Positions 2,866 to 39,200 of a stretch of 64,000 nt of DNA are shown here, in pieces; positions within the stretch are counted from its first letter, which is position 1, and each line of letters begins with the position of its first letter. The notes beneath the pieces were generated by a model, which was not told the DNA's origin, searched no databases, and saw only the letters and a list, made by a program, of their open reading frames with translations. Where the stretch lies: the IMG/VR virus record IMGVR_UViG_3300029240_000008, one strand, 5' to 3'. The DNA comes from a virus. Both the position numbers and the translations under genes were made by a program.

Positions 2866-3078
2866 GGTGTCCTGCATCCGCTCCGGGCGGCGGTGGTTCG
2901 TGACCTGTGCCAGGACTTCACCGGGGCTTGTTTCCCGGTGTGATGTGCATTGACAATTATATATAGTTGTATTGGCTTCTGTTCGACGTTTTAACGGCTT
3001 TTAGCGTGATTCTGATATATTTTATCGTAAGTATATAAAAGCGTCTTAAATCTTCGAATATCAAATTGCTAACAGGGA

Positions 3079-14280: not shown

Positions 14281-14898
14281 TTATTCGTACGTTTTCTCAT
14301 CAATCAGGTTCTGGAACTTTTCAAAAGCCCGGATTGATACTTTGTTACCCTGCTTCTCTGGTTTCAGCGAAACTTGCAAGTGTGTGTCTATGATGTGTGA
14401 CAGCTCTCTGGCGAGGGATTTCTTGCCCTGCTTCAAACCATCGTAATAACCTTTTGCCGGTCTGTACTCATCAATCTGCTTCTTACCTGCTCCCTGAGAG
14501 CCACCAGTCTTGTTTCTGAGCTGATATCCTTGATCTGCAAGCCATCTGATATAATACTGTTCCTTTTCGTCAAGTTCTGATTCTGGACAATTAATATGCA
14601 CTACACGCCAACCATATGGATTTTTTTCTGAATATAATCCATGTTTTTTCAAGCTAAGATCAATGTGCTGTTGATGCCCTGTGCTATGTTGACATAATCT
14701 GGTAATTAGTTTCTTTGCCTGGCCTGCATACCCAAACTTAAAACCGTCTTCATCAATTCTTGTCAAAATGTAGATTCCGGGATTGTCGTTCAGATGCGGG
14801 TCAATTTTTAACCACCTCTTACGGTTCTCGGCTTCAATTGCCTTAGCTTTTACAAAATTTTTATAGTTACTATTCAAAAACTTATCACCTCGATTCAT
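14281..14898 (-). CDS. GIY-YIG domain nuclease (homing-endonuclease-like)
   Basis: GIYILTRIDEDGFKFGYAGQA (GIY...YxG), then the conserved Arg in ITRLCQH, the Glu in EKEQYYI, and LRNKT. Confidence 0.7.
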   Translation of the reverse strand: MNRGDKFLNSNYKNFVKAKAIEAENRKRWLKIDPHLNDNPGIYILTRIDEDGFKFGYAGQAKKLITRLCQHSTGHQQHIDLSLKKHGLYSEKNPYGWRVVHINCPESELDEKEQYYIRWLADQGYQLRNKTGGSQGAGKKQIDEYRPAKGYYDGLKQGKKSLARELSHIIDTHLQVSLKPEKQGNKVSIRAFEKFQNLIDEKTYE

Positions 14899-15891: not shown

Positions 15892-16639
15892 TCAAAACGG
15901 GCATAAATTCAAATCAACATCCAGTCCCGGTCTTGCGATCTGCACCAGAACATCATCCCCGGAAACGCCCTGTATCTCTTTCTGCATCACTTCCGGATTT
16001 CCCCATCCCTCTGACAGGTGGCATAGCGTTATAGTTCTGAGCGAAGCGGTCTTGTTCACTCGGATAATCTCTTTTACAGTAGATAAGCTGCTGTGCCCCC
16101 GGACGGAGTGCTCAAACTTAAACGAATCCTGCTCCGGCGATTCGTCCAGATGATTGCATTCTATAAGGAAGTGATTTATTCTCATGTTCTTGAATGTGAA
16201 CGGCAAATATGAGAAGTCTGTCGCATATATCAGCCGTCCGCATTCTTCGTGAGATATCAGGTATGCAAAGTTTGGTGTATTGTCGTGCGGGACATAGAAC
16301 GGCGTTACCCGGAATGAACCTATGTCCTTTGATTTCTTTTCTGGTAAGCCGATCATCAGCTCGCCAGAGATTGTGTTTACACTCTTAACTGTCTCGTCAT
16401 TGGTGTAAATTTGAATGCCGGCATTCAATATTTCTTTGTACGACTTCTTATGGTCGCCTTAATTAACCATGTTCATGACTTAATAAGCACCCCGAAACTT
16501 CTGATATCCTATAAGAAATTCCTTTCAGGATTTCCGAGTATCTACATCCGCAATCCATAAGCAAGATTTCGCCAGATTCAGATTTAAGTGCGTAGCAGTT
16601 TCCCGGCTGGCTACCTGTATTTATTATTTTCATGAACAT
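15892..16639 (-). pseudogene. MBL-fold metallo-hydrolase (nuclease-like) interrupted inside the HxHxDH motif
   Basis: The N-terminal piece MFMKIINTGSQPGNCYAL...LLSHEHG stops at a TAA (16463-16465). The downstream frame continues GDHKKSYKEILNAGIQIY... Removing 10 nt restores HEHGDH. See the finding for details. Confidence 0.75.
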
Positions 16640-16640
16640 T

Positions 16641-17210
16641 TCAAACCACCTCTCTTTCAAACTTCCACACAAACCCTCCGGCTGTTTTCCTTACTCTCCC
16701 CGGTTTATATTCATTTTTATTTGCAACTTGAAGTATATTTCTGGAACATATGCCAGTAATAATTGACGCTGTCATTGCATTTGGAAAAGAAGCTAAATAG
16801 TTTCCGTTCGTATCATACATATATATTGTTTTCGGGCGTTCATACTGGTTATAATGAATCATCCCCGTATCTATCTGCGGGAGCATTTTAGCAGTCTCTT
16901 TTCTATGTTCTGACGGATGCATTATTTTCAAGTTGGTAACTACGTTGTTCTGCTTATTGCCATCTATATGATGTACGTGGTATCCTTTCGGAATTTCCCC
17001 TATGAAATGTTTAGCAACTAATGTATGTATTCTAGTTGTATGACATTTATTTCTTTCGTCATATAGGTTTACCGTAAAATACCATCCGTTTTTATCCTTA
17101 TTCGACATTATGTGTCCACTTGAATCTTTTCTAAAACTTTTCAGCTTCCCTGTATTTGAAATTTGGTATAATCCCTCGAAACCATTTACCCATTTCCATT
17201 CTTCTTTCAT
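16641..17210 (-). CDS. HNH homing endonuclease (NUMOD4 + HNH)
   Basis: N-terminal WKWVNGFEGLYQISNTGKLKS is NUMOD4-like. HHIDGNKQNNVVTNL...H is the HNH core. Confidence 0.8.
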   Translation of the reverse strand: MKEEWKWVNGFEGLYQISNTGKLKSFRKDSSGHIMSNKDKNGWYFTVNLYDERNKCHTTRIHTLVAKHFIGEIPKGYHVHHIDGNKQNNVVTNLKIMHPSEHRKETAKMLPQIDTGMIHYNQYERPKTIYMYDTNGNYLASFPNAMTASIITGICSRNILQVANKNEYKPGRVRKTAGGFVWKFEREVV

Positions 17211-17449
17211 ACTTTGTCATCCTTTGGAAATCTAAAAATCCCATCACCCATGCCGACAAATCTTCTATCAAGCACATCAAGTGCATCCTGCAATTTATCC
17301 TGCGTCGAGTACATTGCCATCACATACGGACTTTGCTGTATCCCTCCGGCAAATACCGCCTGTATGTAGTTGTCCGAAACAAGCAACGCTGTCATTTCAT
17401 ACGGAAGATTGATTTTTCCATCCTGTGATATAATCCTCATAGTTCTCAC
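17207..17449 (-). CDS. hypothetical protein (80 aa)
   Basis: ORF track. ATGA-type overlap with the HNH gene. Confidence 0.45.
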   Translation of the reverse strand: MRTMRIISQDGKINLPYEMTALLVSDNYIQAVFAGGIQQSPYVMAMYSTQDKLQDALDVLDRRFVGMGDGIFRFPKDDKV

Positions 17450-17585: not shown

Positions 17586-18536
17586 TCACATCTCTTCTGG
17601 CTTCATAAAATCTGGAATCTCTGTTTCCTGTTTGTCTGCTGCCGGAACTGGTTCTTTCTCGGCAGTCTTTACGACTTCTGCGACTGTTGACTGTTTAGGC
17701 TGTTCTTCGATTGCTACTGGTTCGTCTGGGATAAATTCTTCTGCGTTGGCATTCTGCTCGATTTCATAAGCAACTTCATGTTCAATAATATCCTGCTTTG
17801 GAATTTCTTCTGTGGCTTCCTCAACTTCCTGAATGAAAATATCACCATGACTATTGATAATCTGCTTTAACGCACGATTGATAACTGTTTTCTTTGCCAT
17901 CTGGTCAGTAAACTTCTGGTGTGTTCCATTACCGCTTTCCTTGTAACCATAGCCCTGTGACCAAGCCTGTTTGATCTGTTTTATGTTCATTACTTCCAGA
18001 TGCTTTGTTCCATCTTCCATCAGCACTACTGCATATGCCCCAAGAATCTGATCGTTGTCAATGTCCATAAAATCCTGTTCGTGAGAATCCAGAACCTTGT
18101 TTCCATCTTCGATGTGGTATTTGAACTTATCACCATCGTAGATGATCTCGGCATGGATATCTTTCATTCCATATCTTCTGGCGATTGTAATGTTTCCGAA
18201 GTAAGACCTTTGGAACTGGCACTGACCGCCGTAGGCAATGAAATAACCCTGTTTTTTCTGAACTGAAAGTCCGAGCGTTGCCATGTTCATAAGGCTGTTT
18301 GCAATGCTTGTAGCTGTGCAAGATTCCAGAATTGGCTTATTATTTCTGTCTTTTGTCTCTTTCAGAGTCAAATATGCCCCCATGAGCGCATTACTGAGGT
18401 TGTAGTCTTTTGGGAATGAAAGACCGTATTCGCATTTTTTTTCAAGCTGCTTAACCAACCCATCAATGAATGAGTTGTTGATTACGATTGCCGCCTGCTG
18501 TTCTCCTGCTGTTGCTAACTGTGTTTTGTTTGCCAT
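17586..18536 (-). CDS. recT: RecT-family single-strand annealing recombinase
   Basis: 316 aa. The core ...KKQGYFIAYGGQCQFQRSYFG...AYAVVLMEDG...MNIKQIKQAWSQ is typical of RecT, with an acidic C-terminal tail. Confidence 0.8.
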   Translation of the reverse strand: MANKTQLATAGEQQAAIVINNSFIDGLVKQLEKKCEYGLSFPKDYNLSNALMGAYLTLKETKDRNNKPILESCTATSIANSLMNMATLGLSVQKKQGYFIAYGGQCQFQRSYFGNITIARRYGMKDIHAEIIYDGDKFKYHIEDGNKVLDSHEQDFMDIDNDQILGAYAVVLMEDGTKHLEVMNIKQIKQAWSQGYGYKESGNGTHQKFTDQMAKKTVINRALKQIINSHGDIFIQEVEEATEEIPKQDIIEHEVAYEIEQNANAEEFIPDEPVAIEEQPKQSTVAEVVKTAEKEPVPAADKQETEIPDFMKPEEM

Positions 18537-18949
18537 AACAATTCTCCTTTTCTATATTTTTTATATATTTGCCAACACGCTATTTGCGTGATTGCATCTG
18601 TACTGTTTGTTGTTTTGTAGGTTCCCAAACCGCTCTGGATACACTTCCTGATCAGATCCTTAGTTTCGTACCTACGCTATTTTTCAGGGCTCCAAACCCA
18701 AAGCCAATGTCAAGTCCATTCTCGAACCGTTTTGTACCCATGCAAATTCACAGGTCTGTCAAACCTCAAATATTAAATTTACATGGATTCTAGTGAGTGA
18801 ACACGTTCCTCACTTTGCAGGTGCAAAATCACCTGTAGCTTGATTAAGCTAAAATTATCTGTTATGCTATTAGCAAATATAGTTTGCTCTATATTTTGTG
18901 TGGAGCAGCTAGGCTGTCGCCAAACAAGTTCCTAGCTGTTCCACTTTTC

Positions 18950-20977
18950 TCAAATTTCCGTTACCGTCATATCCCCCTCAGAAACTTTCAAGAATATCAA
19001 CTGCGCATCTGCCTTAATGCCTGCCAGACTGCTGTTATCCAGTTCTGCTGCACAGTCAACGAAAATCGGATAGCTCACGCCATAAAACTTCTGCAAGCCG
19101 TCCATGATGGCAATTTTTCCTTTCATCATCAGGGCTGTATTGGCGTTCCCAATCAGTTTCTTCCAGTCGCCGTCCTTGTCCTGCACGTACCAGATGCAAG
19201 CATCTACTACTTCACCATTTTTCTGCGTATCAAATAACTTCACCTTAACACCGTCAAAATACTGGTTTACCGCATCTTCAAGGGCTGTATTCTTTGCCAT
19301 ACTCAGTGATTTCAATTCGTCCAGAATCATCTGTGCATCAGCTTTCTTCTGTGCATACTGTTTCTGGCTTTCCTGAAGCTTCTCGATCTGTTCGTCGATT
19401 CGGACGTTGTTGTTGGCTTCTCCGATTCTCTGATTGACTGCTGCCAATTCCTGTTTTTTGTCGGATAACTGCTCTGAAAGCTGTTTCTTCGCTTCTTCTC
19501 CATTGTCCAGAGAATTAAGCTCCTGCTGTTTCTCTTTGATTGATGCAAGAATCTGCTGATATTCGGCATTTCCTGAGAAGTCTGGTTCTGTCGGTATGGC
19601 TTCCAGATTCTTGTTTTCTGCATCCAGAGAAGTTTTGATCTGTTCTAATTCCCCTGTCAGCTTGGAAATCTCGGATGTAAGAGTTTCTTCCTGCTTATGC
19701 GCTTCTTTCATATCGACAGACGCTTTGTTTCCAGCCTGAATAACTTCATCAAGTTTGCGTTTCTTGTCCTGTTCCCATTCTTCCTTAGCCTTTAACTGCT
19801 GATTGATTCTTTCCTGCTTTTTCTGTTCAAATCTGCTCTTTAACTGCTCAATCTGCTCTGGCGGAAGATTCTGACCACAAGTCGGGCAAATGGTCTCTGC
19901 ATCCTTGAATGTCTCAGATTCAATGTTGTCCAGAGCTGTGTTGTCCCATTCTGTATCTTTGATTTTGGGATACTGTGTTCTGGCGTTCTGTAACTTTTCG
20001 AGAAGTTCTTTCTTCTGCGCTCTCAGAATTACCAAAGCAGAAGTCTCCCTGTTTAATTCGGCTGCTTTCAGATTTCTTTCTGTCCGCAACTCATTGATTT
20101 TAATTTGAATTGCAGTTTTCCTTGTCGAGATTTCTTCATGTGCTTTTGACTCGAAAGAATATTTTCTAACACCTAAATCTGAAAGTTCTGCTCTGAGTTT
20201 GCTGCTACGCTCGTTTCCTGACTGTGCAATCTGCGTTTCAAGGTCAGAAATCTGTTCCTGCAAGGCATTCTTCTGCAATTCCAATTCAGCGGTATCAGCA
20301 TCAACTTTCGACTGCTCCATGCCGATAATCTGGTTTGGAATGGCTTTTAGTTGTTCTTCTGCCTTTTTCAGTGTTGCACTGTTCATGGCTTTGATTTCGT
20401 CTGCCTTGTAGGTTTCCAGAAGTGGTACCAACTCGGCACAATCTGGAACCGTCTTGGCAATCTCTAAATCTGATTTCCCGGCACCGTCTGACATGGAAAA
20501 CAGAATCTTTCTGGCATCTGTATCTTTCAGATATGTGAAGATTTCCATGTGAGACAGCATAAGGAAATTATCAAAGTCAAACCCCCGTTCTTTCAAATCA
20601 GCTTTAAAATCTCTTTCAGCTTTCGGAACGCCGTTGATTTCGTACTTGTTTGATAATGCAACCTTTCCCGGTTTTCCGTCCTTTGGCTTACTTTCTGTGC
20701 GTTTCTGGAACTTCGCTACGCTTACTGGCTTTCCATCAATTACAAGGCCAATATCAACTCTTGGCAGACATTCTCTGCCATCATCCGGTCTGATATCCGG
20801 GTTGCTCTTTAAACTGTAGTCTTTGTCGCAAAACTCCCACATATGAGCGTCTGCCAGTGTGGTTTTTCCGCATCCGTTCTTCCCGGAAACGACTGTTCTG
20901 TGTCCGAACTCTATTTTCTTTTCTGACTGGCCTTTAAAATCGGTCAATCTAATTTCTCTTACTTCGATTTTCTTCAT
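18950..20977 (-). CDS. SMC/Rad50/SbcC-like ATPase with central CxxC hook
   Basis: Walker A GKNGCGKTT at the N-terminus, long coiled-coil middle, CPTCGQ near the centre, Walker-B-like PIFVDCAAELD at the C-terminus. Confidence 0.75.
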   Translation of the reverse strand: MKKIEVREIRLTDFKGQSEKKIEFGHRTVVSGKNGCGKTTLADAHMWEFCDKDYSLKSNPDIRPDDGRECLPRVDIGLVIDGKPVSVAKFQKRTESKPKDGKPGKVALSNKYEINGVPKAERDFKADLKERGFDFDNFLMLSHMEIFTYLKDTDARKILFSMSDGAGKSDLEIAKTVPDCAELVPLLETYKADEIKAMNSATLKKAEEQLKAIPNQIIGMEQSKVDADTAELELQKNALQEQISDLETQIAQSGNERSSKLRAELSDLGVRKYSFESKAHEEISTRKTAIQIKINELRTERNLKAAELNRETSALVILRAQKKELLEKLQNARTQYPKIKDTEWDNTALDNIESETFKDAETICPTCGQNLPPEQIEQLKSRFEQKKQERINQQLKAKEEWEQDKKRKLDEVIQAGNKASVDMKEAHKQEETLTSEISKLTGELEQIKTSLDAENKNLEAIPTEPDFSGNAEYQQILASIKEKQQELNSLDNGEEAKKQLSEQLSDKKQELAAVNQRIGEANNNVRIDEQIEKLQESQKQYAQKKADAQMILDELKSLSMAKNTALEDAVNQYFDGVKVKLFDTQKNGEVVDACIWYVQDKDGDWKKLIGNANTALMMKGKIAIMDGLQKFYGVSYPIFVDCAAELDNSSLAGIKADAQLIFLKVSEGDMTVTEI

Positions 20978-20978
20978 A

Positions 20979-21596
20979 TTACAAAATCTCCAATCTTTTT
21001 ACTGATACCTCCAACGCGGTTAACCATGATTGACTCTGGTCCGACCACAGTTCCCGGCTTTGAAATCTTCCGCAGAGTTTGATTTTTGCTCCCTTTTTCA
21101 GATTTTCTACGGCATCTGCGTTTTCCTCCCAGCATAAACAACTGATTGCGTCTGATCTGGTATATCCGGCTTTCTTCTTTCTGTTTACCGCTAGAAGTAT
21201 TCTTGCCAGCTTCCTGTCGTTGCTTGTGCCAATCATCTTTATTGTCGGCTTTTTAATCAAGTAACCGGTCAGATAAACTTCGTTTGCATCGTGTTCTTCC
21301 AGTCTTTCAAGGTACTGAATGTCCATTGCTCTTACATATGCTGTAAGGCTTTTCTTGCCATCTTCCCGGACTGTTCGACTTCGCATTTCACCATATACAC
21401 TGGCAATCAACTCTGTTTCTCTGGAAATCATGTGTTCCGGCACAATAATCGGAAGGATGTCATAGGATGTACTCTTTCTAAATATTGTCATTCTTCCCTC
21501 GTACATCTTGGTTCCACCGTATTCTTCATGTGAGAATACGAACCCCGCCGGAATGTCACCTGATAAAAGCACTTGGTTCTCATCTCGCATCTTCAT
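20979..21596 (-). CDS. ssDNA-binding protein with two OB-fold-like halves
   Basis: NQVLLSGDI...FSHEEYGGTKMYEG in the first half. NEVYLTGYLIKKP...ILLAVNRKK...CLCWEENA...KGAKIKLCGRFQSRELW in the second half, which is SSB-like. Sits in the recombination module. Confidence 0.55.
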   Translation of the reverse strand: MKMRDENQVLLSGDIPAGFVFSHEEYGGTKMYEGRMTIFRKSTSYDILPIIVPEHMISRETELIASVYGEMRSRTVREDGKKSLTAYVRAMDIQYLERLEEHDANEVYLTGYLIKKPTIKMIGTSNDRKLARILLAVNRKKKAGYTRSDAISCLCWEENADAVENLKKGAKIKLCGRFQSRELWSDQSQSWLTALEVSVKRLEIL

Positions 21597-36268: not shown

Positions 36269-39200
36269 CTACCTTTCAAATAATCCGAATCCATTGCGGT
36301 TTCTGAACTGTTCGTTTTCCTCTTGCAAATATCCGACTAAGTGACCATCTGCATAAATTGCCATGCCTTTGACAGCTTCCCGGATAACCTGTGCGATATT
36401 CTGATTGTTGTCGAATGTGTTGTTACTGATTGCAATTACTTCACGGCGAATATCGTCACCAAAAGTACCATTCGCAGATACCGGCTTCTGATACATTTTG
36501 GCAGTCGGAACAGCCTTTATATTTGCTTCCATTTGTGGGAGCTGAATACCCTGTATAGATGCGCTTATATTTCCGATTGTAGACTGTAATGCCGGAATCA
36601 TGTTCTGCATACCTATCTGAAAGCCCTGCATGGTGTAGCTACCAAGTTCTTCAAATACCTGAGATGGGCTGTGAATTTTGAGAACTTTGCGGAACGTATT
36701 TGATATATTTTGCGCGATTTTTTGCACATTTGCATAAAGCTGTTGTGCCGCGCCTACGATTCCATTGTTTAAGCCAATAATAGAGTTCCAACCGATATTA
36801 TACAGGTTTCCAATGGAATTGCTGATTCTGCTTCGGATTCTTCCGAACCATGTGAACGACGCAGAAAAGCCCGGCTCTAATCCGTTTCGGAATCCTTGAC
36901 CGCAGTATTCTGCAAGCTGCTTGAACCATCTGGACGGAGAGTGGGAGTCTACTGCTTCCTGCGCAGGGGCTTTTACGCTGTTATTCATTAGGTCAAGAAT
37001 CGAAGTCTTTGTGCTTTCTTTCTTCCCGTTAATTCCAGACTGTAATCCCTCTGCAATGTTGCTTCCAAGGGTTTTACCGCTTGATTTCGCAGTTTCTTCT
37101 GCATCTTTTGCAGATGATTGAATTGTTGAGTTAAGCTTTTCAGTGACTTTGCTGCCGTTCTGCTCAATCCCACTACCTACGGCAAGAATCTGATTCTTTC
37201 CGAGTTCCGTAACTAATTCAAAACCAGAATTGTTATCCAGAACGCCGTTGATTGCCCCCTGCAGAGTTGAATCCATTGTACTTTGTAGAGTACTTTCATA
37301 GTCAGAAATACCTTTTCCAAACTGCACCATCTGTCCGTTTGCTAAAGTATAGTAACCGTTATCATCCGGTTCTAATCCCTTTGCAATTTCCTGATAAATC
37401 TGCAATGCTTTTTCACCGAGAATCTGTTTTCCATTTTCCCAGATACCGCCCATCTCATCAATTGCGTTTGCCGTATCTGTTACCAGAGTTGCAAAGTCAA
37501 CGGTCTGGATAAGTGTCTGGAATCCCGTAAGCTGTTCTGAGATATCCTCAAACGACACATTGTTAATCCGATCAGCCATATTTGAAAACTGATTAGAGGA
37601 TGTTTCCGCTGTATCTCCAAGGTCTTTGACTGGTTTGTTTACTCCTGCTATCGCATTCTCGAAATCTTCGGACGAAATTCCAAGATTATTAAGCTTAAGT
37701 TCAAGTTCAAATAACGCCTGTTCTGTGCTATATCCGTTATCTTTTAGCTCGGAAAGGAATGTTAATAAAGGATATGCTTGTTCGCCTGAAATCTGGCTTG
37801 CGTGAACCAAACCGAGAATAGCATCTTCATACTCCTGAAATACCTTTAAATCGTCCTCTGTCAGTTTATCTCCGACTCCGAATATATCTTTCATCCATTC
37901 GTTGATAGCACCGGTAAAATCTCCTTTTTGATATCCGAATACATTATCTTCCAAAAACTCTCCAAAAGTTTTATCTTCGCCGCCGAACAGATTGACGCTT
38001 ATCCATTTTCCAAGGTTGAAACCTGCCATTGCAGTTCCTAAGACAACCATACTGTCTGCGAATCCTGCTACAAGTGTAGAACCTAGTCCAGAGCCAAAGA
38101 ATGTCTGCAATGCACCACTGGCTGTGGAAAGAACCGTTCCTAACCCACCGAAGATTGTTCTGAGTGCACCGATAGAGCTAACTACATTGTATATGTTTCG
38201 AGCAAAATTAATGCTCCCTCTTATAATAAAAAACCGTGCTAGAGCTTCGCCAAGAGCTTCTATCTGCTTATCGTCAAGCTTTCCTAAGGCTTTTGCGAAA
38301 GCATCTAAGGCGCTTACTAATGCGTTAATCAGAGGGGCGCCGATATCGTTCAGCATTATATCGAAAAAGCTGATAAACCCATCTGCGAATCCCTCGGCAA
38401 ATGGCTGGAATACATCCCATACATCACCGATTGTTTTTATTAACGAATCCCAATTAATATTTTTGATGAAATTCACAATTACGTCTTTAAGATTCCCGAT
38501 TCTTGTCCATAACCCGTCCCAATCAACATCAATCACTCCAAATTTATCAAGTGCGGCAACAGTAAGACCAAGTCCTGCCGCTATCGAAGCATATGGATGC
38601 GCTGCTAACATGGTGATTCCTTTGCCTATCACTCCTTCTTTACCGAAAATGCCACCGAACCATGTAAGTCCTTTAAATGCTACAAAAGCTGTCAGGAGCT
38701 GACCAAGGAAATAGCCGATAGATTGTGCCTGTTCTGGCGAAAATGTTGCGATAAACTCTTTGAACCTGTCAACCAGATCAGGAAGTTTATTAACTCCATC
38801 TGCCGCCTTGTCAAAAAAATCATCGAAGAAATCAAGTAATCCTGTTCCGACATTCTCAGCAAATGGCTCTAATACATCCCATAACTGTGCAAGGGAAGCA
38901 TTGATTTTGTCCCAATTGATCTTTACAAGAAAATCATTGAAAGCATTAATTAATCGCGGTAATCCCTTTTCTCCTAATGTCCACTTTCCAAGTGGAACTA
39001 AAAAGTGTTTCCAGAAATCTTTTAATGCTGTCCATGTGAAATCTCTGAGTTGTTTCAATCCATTGTTCCAGAGATTTTTTAGTGCTTTTGTGGTAGGTTC
39101 TGCGACTTTTGCAAGTTTCTTAAATGTGTCTGTAACTTTATTTGCGAATGCCATAGCCTTATTTTCCATGGAATTGTAAGCGGCATCCCATTTCTTCTGG

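Follow-up and report, generated by a model that had tools for sequence, protein, structure and literature searches.

Natural translational bypassing in bacteria has for 35 years meant one case, phage T4 gene 60, and one candidate, Streptomyces phage Hau3. The T4 gene 60/MobA system has a 50-nucleotide (nt) bypass that lies within a homing-endonuclease element (10.1101/2022.08.31.505936). For Hau3, bypass of a 10-nt gap in the terminase gene was shown by a mass-spectrometry junction peptide in E. coli once the codon UUA was replaced by UAA (PMC10732093). In addition, synthetic stop-hops, in which matched codons flank a stop codon, have been made in E. coli (Weiss et al. 1987, as reviewed), and no natural occurrences were known according to a 2016 review (PMC5009743). 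Here we analyzed a viral DNA of 64,000 nt, IMG/VR record IMGVR_UViG_3300029240_000008 (the whole stretch is called the window), in which a gene for a metallo-beta-lactamase (MBL)-fold protein is interrupted inside the codons of its HxHxDH metal-binding motif, directly downstream of an HNH endonuclease gene. We consider it likely, judging from comparative sequence data, that the 10 nt in question (TAATTAA plus a landing codon GGC) represent an immunity insert linked to the homing endonuclease, and that programmed translational bypassing keeps the MBL gene functional. A search of the literature found no report of recoding at an MBL/HNH locus.

The MBL gene is encoded on the minus strand from ATG 16639 onward (MFMK...; its homologues begin MFM[KR]), one base (16640) away from the TGA of the HNH gene. 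At the junction it reads ...AGT CAT GAA CAT GGT (16468-16466), TAA TTAA (16465-16459), GGC (16458-16456), GAC CAT AAG.... Removal of 10 nt gives S-H-E-H-G-D-H, by which the metal motif HEHGDH is restored. A reading made earlier from the letters alone (the sequence-only reading) had claimed exactly this, an HxHxDH motif split by a stop-containing gap between Gly codons; the claim was borne out, and all of its coordinates were correct when we re-read the sequence. In the +1 frame a TAA immediately precedes GGC, which rules out that the two parts of the gene are connected by a single +1 slip. As in T4 gene 60, the stop comes right after a Gly take-off codon, and the codon at which decoding would resume is preceded by a matching Gly landing codon. 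Also as in T4, the gap is located at the metal-binding site of a conserved enzyme, with an HNH-family gene 5' of it. With Hau3 the locus has in common that a phage gene contains a non-coding block of just 10 nt, that the A-site codon is slow to decode and that take-off is at Gly (GWG in Hau3); a hop of 10 nt from such a codon has its direct precedent there. The Hau3 gaps (10 nt and 7 nt) differ in that they use the rare sense codon UUA, with a proposed sensing of host state, and have a predicted stem-loop and an internal Shine-Dalgarno site. They are reported for three genes only, with no gap-length series and no reported link to a homing endonuclease.

Table 1. Coordinates of the interrupted MBL gene and of associated features in the window.
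Feature	Coordinates	Strand	Description	Basis
Shine-Dalgarno-like site	16646..16654	-	GAGAGGTGG, 6 nt 5' of the MBL ATG, within the 3' end of the HNH gene	Read from the sequence
MBL open reading frame (ORF) 1	16466..16639	-	58 codons, MFMK...SHEHG; the last is the take-off codon GGT (16468-16466)	Sequence
Coding gap	16459..16465	-	TAATTAA; 0-frame TAA 16465-16463, +1-frame TAA 16461-16459; relatives vary: TGATTAA, TAA(-TTAA)	Sequence
Landing codon	16456..16458	-	GGC (GGT or GGA in relatives); would stay untranslated if peptidyl-tRNA(Gly) re-pairs here	Sequence
MBL ORF2	15892..16455	-	Resumes at GAC CAT (D59 H60); 187 codons + stop 15892-15894	Sequence
Diagnostic patch	16422..16486	-	Spliced nt 154-208; substitutions fixed in gap alleles and absent in intact ones, from ~20 nt 5' to ~34 nt 3' of the gap	
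HNH homing-endonuclease gene	16641..17210	-	Free-standing, 189 amino acids (aa); NUMOD4 + HNH_3 + NUMOD1; directly upstream of MBL	Pfam, PHROG HNH families
Mosaic block	16470..17218	-	HNH gene + MBL 5' part up to the gap; 75-90% DNA identity with L088-type phages; flanks and MBL 3' part 40-60%	
Recombination module	17586..21596	-	RecT 17586-18536, SbcC-like ATPase 18950-20977, SSB 20979-21596; upstream of HNH + MBL	Pfam, PHROG

The gap proved to be genuine and to recur in relatives. Searching proteins with the spliced sequence, we obtained full-length homologues of 245 aa together with many products of 178 aa and 191 aa that comprise the C-terminal part only. Gap-less alleles, one of the things that the sequence-only reading suggested looking for, do exist. 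Eighty related IMG/VR loci fell into three length classes: 55 are intact (CAY GGA CAC GGA GAT CAC), 8 carry 6 additional nt with an in-frame stop (CAY GGT TAA GGA/GGC GAY CAY), and 17 carry 10 additional nt (GGT TAATTAA GGC/GGA, or GGT TGATTAA GGT). With the window added, 26 of the 81 alleles of this window-type phage group (~32%) contain a gap. We also scanned the 2.9 million viral contigs of IMG/VR with the pattern CATGARCAYGG-N{1,14}-GAYCAYAARAARTC. It matched 24 contigs, 22 with the 10-nt gap, from at least seven metagenome projects, and two with the 6-nt gap; none was intact. Related gaps also turned up in GenBank records of cultured phages and in assemblies from ENA and Logan.

At least 12 junction types occur at the same codon boundary, with eight gap lengths (+1, +4, +5, +6, +8, +10, +11 and +12 nt; Table 2). 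In all of them a stop codon stands immediately 3' of the codon for the second "x" of HxHxDH. A codon synonymous with the take-off codon (Gly/Gly, Leu/Leu or Gln/Gln) stands immediately 5' of GAY CAY in all types except the Tyr type TAT TGAC GAC. Past the gap, the reading frame of each type runs on without a stop for 176-191 codons up to the conserved C-terminus, except in L226, whose contig ends 15 codons past the gap. Where the gap varies, it does so with these features preserved: TAA alternates with TGA, and the landing codon is GGC, GGT or GGA. Plain decay, of which random flanking codons would have been the sign according to the sequence-only reading, is contradicted by the comparative data. 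Divided by 3, the gap lengths leave every possible remainder, so that the set as a whole cannot be put down to frameshifting alone or to codon reassignment; we rejected reassignment in particular, as most gaps change the frame. For the TAT TGA CGA C allele, we also considered a simple +1 frameshift. Its product would read HEHYDDH, while all 79 intact relatives have the canonical HxHxDH, so a skip of 4 nt is likelier. Two side observations concern the gap sequences themselves: the 10-nt gap resembles the 6-nt gap (GGT TAA GGN) plus a 4-nt TTAA duplication, and an AGG[ACU]G motif overlaps most of the Gly landing sites.

Table 2. Junction types at the HxHxDH codons of phage MBL genes.
Gap (nt)	Junction	Where found
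+1	CAT GGG TGA CCA	Three lineages, 67-85% protein identity to window (GGG TGA C in L081, L082, L085)
+1	CTT TGA C (RF2 frameshift heptamer)	L280
+4	TAT TGAC GAC/GAT	L097-L099, L228, L229
+5	GGT TAG GC and GGT TAG GA	L226, L227
+6	GGT TAA GGN	Window-type phage group
+6	CTC TGA CTG (CTT in one record)	L100-L105, L389
+6	CAA TGA CAG	Cultured Cellulophaga phages phi18:3, phi46:3
+8	GGC TGAAA GGA	L232
+10	GGT TRATTAA GGN	Window-type phage group
+10	GGC TAACAAA GGT	L231
+11	GGT TAACCCAT GGC	L088-L092, L222, L223
+12	GGT TAAATACTG GGC	L224, L225

Compared with the 50 nt of T4 gene 60, the MBL gaps are short (1-12 nt), come in many lengths including in-frame ones, and have neither a take-off stem-loop nor an evident nascent-peptide signal. 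The host gene encodes an MBL hydrolase rather than a topoisomerase II, and the phages concerned are those of Firmicutes and Bacteroidota. The +6 alleles (GGT TAA GGN, CTC TGA CTG, CAA TGA CAG) have the architecture of a stop-hop, nine nt for one amino acid. While the synthetic stop-hops were artificial and inefficient, the MBL ones would be natural and conserved. The +1 alleles, by contrast, recall the CUU UGA C of RF2 (prfB): in both, UGA-C adjoins a P-site codon whose tRNA can pair again after a +1 slip. This feature is confined to four relatives (CTT TGA C in L280, GGG TGA C in L081, L082 and L085) and is not found in the window, where the +1 shift is blocked by TAA. Unlike in RF2, no upstream Shine-Dalgarno-like stimulator was evident in the +1 alleles, as seen at L280 ~290-300 and L081 ~3008-3014. 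Another likeness is to the mitochondrial byps of Magnusiomyces capitatus, many short mobile inserts that are bypassed so that the genes stay functional, with two-out-of-three codon matching tolerated. The byps differ from the MBL gaps in length (27-55 nt), in using an unassigned codon instead of a stop, in their mitochondrial location and GC-cluster-like spread, and in having no endonuclease.

If interrupted alleles were simply dead, other null alleles would be expected in the same populations. We compared 235 alleles of three phage groups (81 + 74 + 80): 33 were disrupted, all 33 at the HxHxDH boundary, and a stop or frameshift elsewhere was found in none of the 235. This suggests that the gene is functional. 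The substitutions diagnostic of gap alleles form a patch around the junction (Table 1), which is presumed from the sequence to be the target region of the endonuclease. The patch haplotype around the window junction is never gap-less in IMG/VR; outside the patch, gap and intact alleles are intermixed, with a maximum identity of 100%. Over the first 22 codons past the landing site, which include D59 and H60, the 10-nt window-type and the 6-nt L017-type alleles differ by 14.5 synonymous changes in 13 sites and by 4.5 non-synonymous changes in 53 sites. These codons are under strong purifying selection. The first possible start downstream of the landing codon is TTG 16428, ten codons on, and the ten intervening codons are conserved; there is no Shine-Dalgarno-like site before this TTG, an argument against a separate start for the C-terminal part. 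More distant alleles agree: L231 and L232 are homologous across the whole HNH-MBL block with 68% nucleotide identity, and their C-terminal parts share 62% protein identity. The former has a gap of 10 nt and the latter of 8 nt, and each C-terminal part is open in its own landing frame only.

The spliced protein also looks like an intact enzyme. Pfam assigned it to Lactamase_B_2 and Lactamase_B, and AlphaFold2 modelled an MBL domain with a predicted local distance difference test score of 92.3 and a predicted template modelling score of 0.91. H55, H57, D59, H60, H115, D138 and H204 are conserved among MBL homologues, with H115, D138 and H204 invariant; D59 and H60, the first two codons past the landing site, are invariant in 40 homologues. 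Only after splicing does the product combine HxHxDH, the downstream His, Asp and His ligands and the alpha-beta/beta-alpha fold of an MBL-fold hydrolase.

We then consider the gene upstream. Its domains and its sporadic presence (1 of the 80 related syntenic IMG/VR loci, or 2 of 81 with the window) mark its product as a predicted free-standing homing endonuclease of the I-HmuI/I-BasI-like kind, and the protein has ~31% identity to I-BasI-annotated genes. Every relative of this HNH protein with at least 41% identity is encoded directly upstream of an MBL gene, and among these 14 HNH lineages the MBL gene is interrupted in 11. In the L100-type group (74 loci), the MBL gene is interrupted in 6/6 loci with HNH and 0/68 without; in the L098-type group (80 loci), the respective numbers are 1/1 and 0/79. 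Pooling the MBL-centred samples, interruption was seen at 9/9 HNH-positive and 24/226 HNH-negative loci (Fisher p = 7e-9, from only three independent lineages). The sequence-only reading had proposed checking whether gap and HNH gene co-occur. The adjacency and the 11 interrupted lineages support the association, but strict co-occurrence had to be given up, as it holds in two phage groups and fails in the window-type group.

The pattern of DNA identity provided a further link. Between the window and L088, identity is ~40% upstream of 17218, rises to 75-90% over the HNH gene and the first ~150 nt of MBL, and falls to 42-60% from the gap onward. In L097-L099, a cassette consisting of HNH, its own 57-codon MBL 5' part and the gap lies within a resident MBL gene, whose displaced 5' fragment remains upstream. 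These fragments (L097 1851-2012, L098 2254-2391, L099 2006-2275) appear as ORFs of 45-89 aa upstream of HNH that end ~10 codons before HxH. To judge by its layout, the mosaic block together with the in-gene cassette is the signature of a putative free-standing homing endonuclease cutting near the HxHxDH codons. As with T4 gene 60/MobA, endonuclease, intervening coding sequence and gap form one mobile block, and the gap outlasts loss of the endonuclease. Unlike MobA, the endonuclease is of the NUMOD4/HNH_3 type and is inserted upstream of the gene instead of splitting it (L097-L099 excepted). The MBL/HNH locus is therefore analogous to the MobA element without being a member of it, with bypass and immunity predicted here. 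The earlier suggestion of a miniature analogue of T4 gene 60/mobA is supported at its core by the junction series, the lack of other disruptions, the selection past the landing site and the HNH-MBL block that ends at the gap.

From this anatomy, conservation, selection, mosaicism and HNH association, we infer a hop, its efficiency and its immunity function as follows. A ribosome would reach GGU with UAA in the A site, and slow decoding of the stop would let peptidyl-tRNA(Gly) leave GGU. The mRNA would slide by 10 nt until the tRNA re-pairs with GGC, and decoding would resume at GAC CAU, giving the full-length MBL protein with an intact HEHGDH. Ribosomes that do not hop would terminate and release a harmless 58-aa peptide. 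At the DNA level, the target site of the NUMOD4-HNH endonuclease encoded upstream is probably abolished by the gap together with the patch of substitutions. HNH, MBL 5' part and gap would act as a mobile cassette that converts gap-less alleles, everything between the HNH gene and the cut being co-converted, and a gap allele could persist once the HNH gene is lost. Extending this to the whole series is a bolder step, which we favor by a narrower measure. On that broader proposal, a family of 1-12-nt gaps at the HxHxDH codons of phage MBL genes would have arisen repeatedly as immunity alleles against NUMOD4-HNH endonucleases, would include the first natural in-frame stop-hops (GGU UAA GGN, CUC UGA CUG, CAA UGA CAG), and would be bypassed by ordinary Firmicutes and Bacteroidota ribosomes without elaborate RNA signals.

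Several observations weigh against bypassing of an immunity insert. The stop directly after the take-off codon, the matched landing codon 5' of the resume codon, the conserved signals and the downstream selection are all features of a bypass site; a stimulatory RNA structure of the gene 60 kind is not among the features found. We found no conserved stem-loop or other stimulator in the gap alleles (z-scores 0 to -1.7 against shuffles, no shared structure). The 5-bp stem ATGGT/ACCAT, which the sequence-only reading proposed, exists as complementarity in the window. However, it lies outside the predicted minimum-energy fold, in a region that folds no better than shuffles (z = 0.09), and it is not conserved, with L017-type alleles reading CACGGT...GATCAC. 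Unstimulated stop-hops in E. coli are inefficient, at ~1% or less. The landing codon of TAT TGAC GAC is unmatched, and some others, such as GGA after GGT, are non-cognate at the wobble position for tRNA-Gly(GCC). Moreover, matched codons from 4-fold-degenerate boxes (GGN, CTN) might owe their match to 2 nt duplicated where the insert entered. We rejected this as their general origin: such a duplication fits GG..GG and CT..CT, leaves the universal stop unexplained and is unneeded for the 2-fold Gln pair CAA/CAG.

The selection and linkage data have adverse sides, too. In the window-type group, the gene recombines freely outside a patch of ~65-150 nt, so conservation far downstream proves little on its own. 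The ratio of non-synonymous to synonymous substitution rates over the whole C-terminus within gap alleles is 0.09-0.12, which is weak evidence. Because of the free recombination with intact alleles, we set it aside and relied on the patch and on the L231/L232 pair. In the same group, 24 of the 26 gap alleles have no adjacent HNH gene. Three of the 14 HNH lineages adjoin intact MBL genes (HRHFDH, HCHTDH, HSHLDH). Finally, in Efquatrovirus (L387, Enterococcus phage vB_EfaS_AL2, 1801-3088; L388, PricklyPear), a NUMOD4-HNH gene with 32-35% identity to that of the window lies directly upstream of, and overlaps, an intact MBL gene (HRHGDH), which indicates that the HNH-MBL arrangement is older and wider than the gap.

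These points have to be set against other explanations. An assembly or sequencing artefact, a concern of the sequence-only reading as well, is hardly credible, since the same gap recurs in 22 independent IMG/VR contigs and related gaps in ENA, Logan and cultured phages. The alternative that deserves most attention, though we regard it as unlikely, is a null allele: a selfish HNH cassette, or error-prone repair of its cut, would have left a stop-containing scar that kills MBL, with the downstream ORF still intact because it is recent or refreshed by recombination. Several facts would fit a dead gene: an inactivating insert would be expected to carry a stop here, we found no RNA structure that could stimulate a hop, gap and intact alleles are intermixed outside the patch up to 100% identity, and the Cellulophaga gap alleles differ by only 3-5% from intact relatives. 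Yet the 235 alleles contain no other nulls, and a gap is carried by about a third of window-type alleles, with stop and Gly landing kept through variation. The patch is never intact, with synonymous change saturated and non-synonymous change rare just past the landing site, and L231 and L232 keep the interruption down to 62% protein identity. As to the earlier proposal of a repair scar or inactivating insert, the gap may have arisen as a scar, a gene left dead is contradicted, and an inactivating insert is disfavored.

The two remaining alternatives keep the gene product useful, and we find both improbable. The gap could be bypassed yet serve as a regulatory attenuator that sets a low or condition-dependent MBL level, with the HNH association being secondary. 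A regulatory role has been proposed for the 10-nt gaps of Hau3 (PMC10732093), and most window-group gap alleles as well as the Cellulophaga phages have no adjacent HNH gene. Attenuation leaves unexplained, however, why the gap occurs only with HNH in the L100-type and L098-type groups, why the mosaic block ends at the gap, and why the gap is surrounded by a dense substitution patch, as expected of a target-site variant. Slightly less probable still is a two-piece enzyme, in which the 58-aa N fragment (HxH) would pair non-covalently with a C fragment translated from its own start, as for genes split by MobA or MobE. Split Topo2L and NrdA are precedents, phi18:3 is annotated as two coding sequences (CDS), and the +1 alleles have a +1-frame ATG overlapping the stop (ATGGGTGA), from which gene callers annotate 191-aa ORFs starting MNMGDH. 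Against this, neither the window nor any +5 to +12 allele offers an ATG, GTG or TTG after the gap and ahead of the invariant D59-H60. In the window, a fragment begun at TTG 16428 would lose two metal ligands, and the codons between landing and this TTG are conserved. Bypassing of an immunity insert is hence the explanation that we retain.

Such bypassing would have several implications. A series of at least 12 junction types, eight gap lengths and three to four take-off amino acids amounts to a ready-made mutational scan of the requirements for hopping, and it independently supports the view that homing endonucleases drive the evolution of recoding. It also flags a systematic annotation error, as such genes are called two ORFs or pseudogenes, for example phi18:3 gp019/gp020. 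The cultured Cellulophaga phages phi18:3 and phi46:3, with their gap-less sisters phi13:2 and phi19:3, are systems for a direct test. In phi18:3 (KC821620.1, L385, 2501-3250) and phi46:3 (KC821622.1), the MBL gene lies next to RecT, with no HNH gene adjoining it, and reads CAC GGC CAC CAA TGA CAG GAC CAT (HGHQ*QDH). The sisters have CAA GAT CAT, and the interrupted gene of phi18:3 is entered in GenBank as the two CDS gp020 and gp019. A hop product of phi18:3 would carry ...CIVTHGHQDHCK, and a readthrough product ...HGHQXQDHCK. A search of the paper library brought up no proteome of phi18:3.

As for the function of the MBL protein, the sequence-only reading had named it the only obvious nuclease partner of the RecT module, which was an inference. 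The nearest structures in a Foldseek search of the model were YhfI, an ElaC/RNase Z homologue and the anti-Pycsar enzyme Apyc1 (E values 1e-14 to 1e-12), the last pointing to Apyc1-type phosphodiesterases. These matches leave room for a nuclease that works together with RecT as well as for a nucleotide phosphodiesterase.

No tRNA or suppressor tRNA was found in the window, INPHARED phages contained no near-identical DNA, and a scan of contigs for a cultured lysogen gave distant matches to metagenome-assembled genomes only. The gap creates the sequence TTAATTAA at 16459-16466, the only other copy of which in the 64-kb window is at 38946-38953. In the slot upstream of MBL, ORFs of clusters C3 and C13 were considered and proved unrelated to allele state. 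About 1000-2000 nt upstream of MBL in L067, L075, L009 and L040, in a variable slot upstream of orf80, there is an ORF of 339 aa (cluster C26) that is reverse-transcriptase-like by sequence only. A 228-aa ORF (cluster C22) occurs sporadically ~55-1590 nt downstream of MBL in both gap-bearing and gap-less genomes (L006, L023, L034, L069-L071, L074), and could represent a further mobile gene of the endonuclease type. In the window itself, a 205-aa ORF at 14281-14898 on the minus strand has a GIY-YIG-like motif (GIYILT...YAGQA), and its relative in L082 gives a weak GIY-YIG match in Pfam; it may be a second homing-endonuclease-type gene of the same module.

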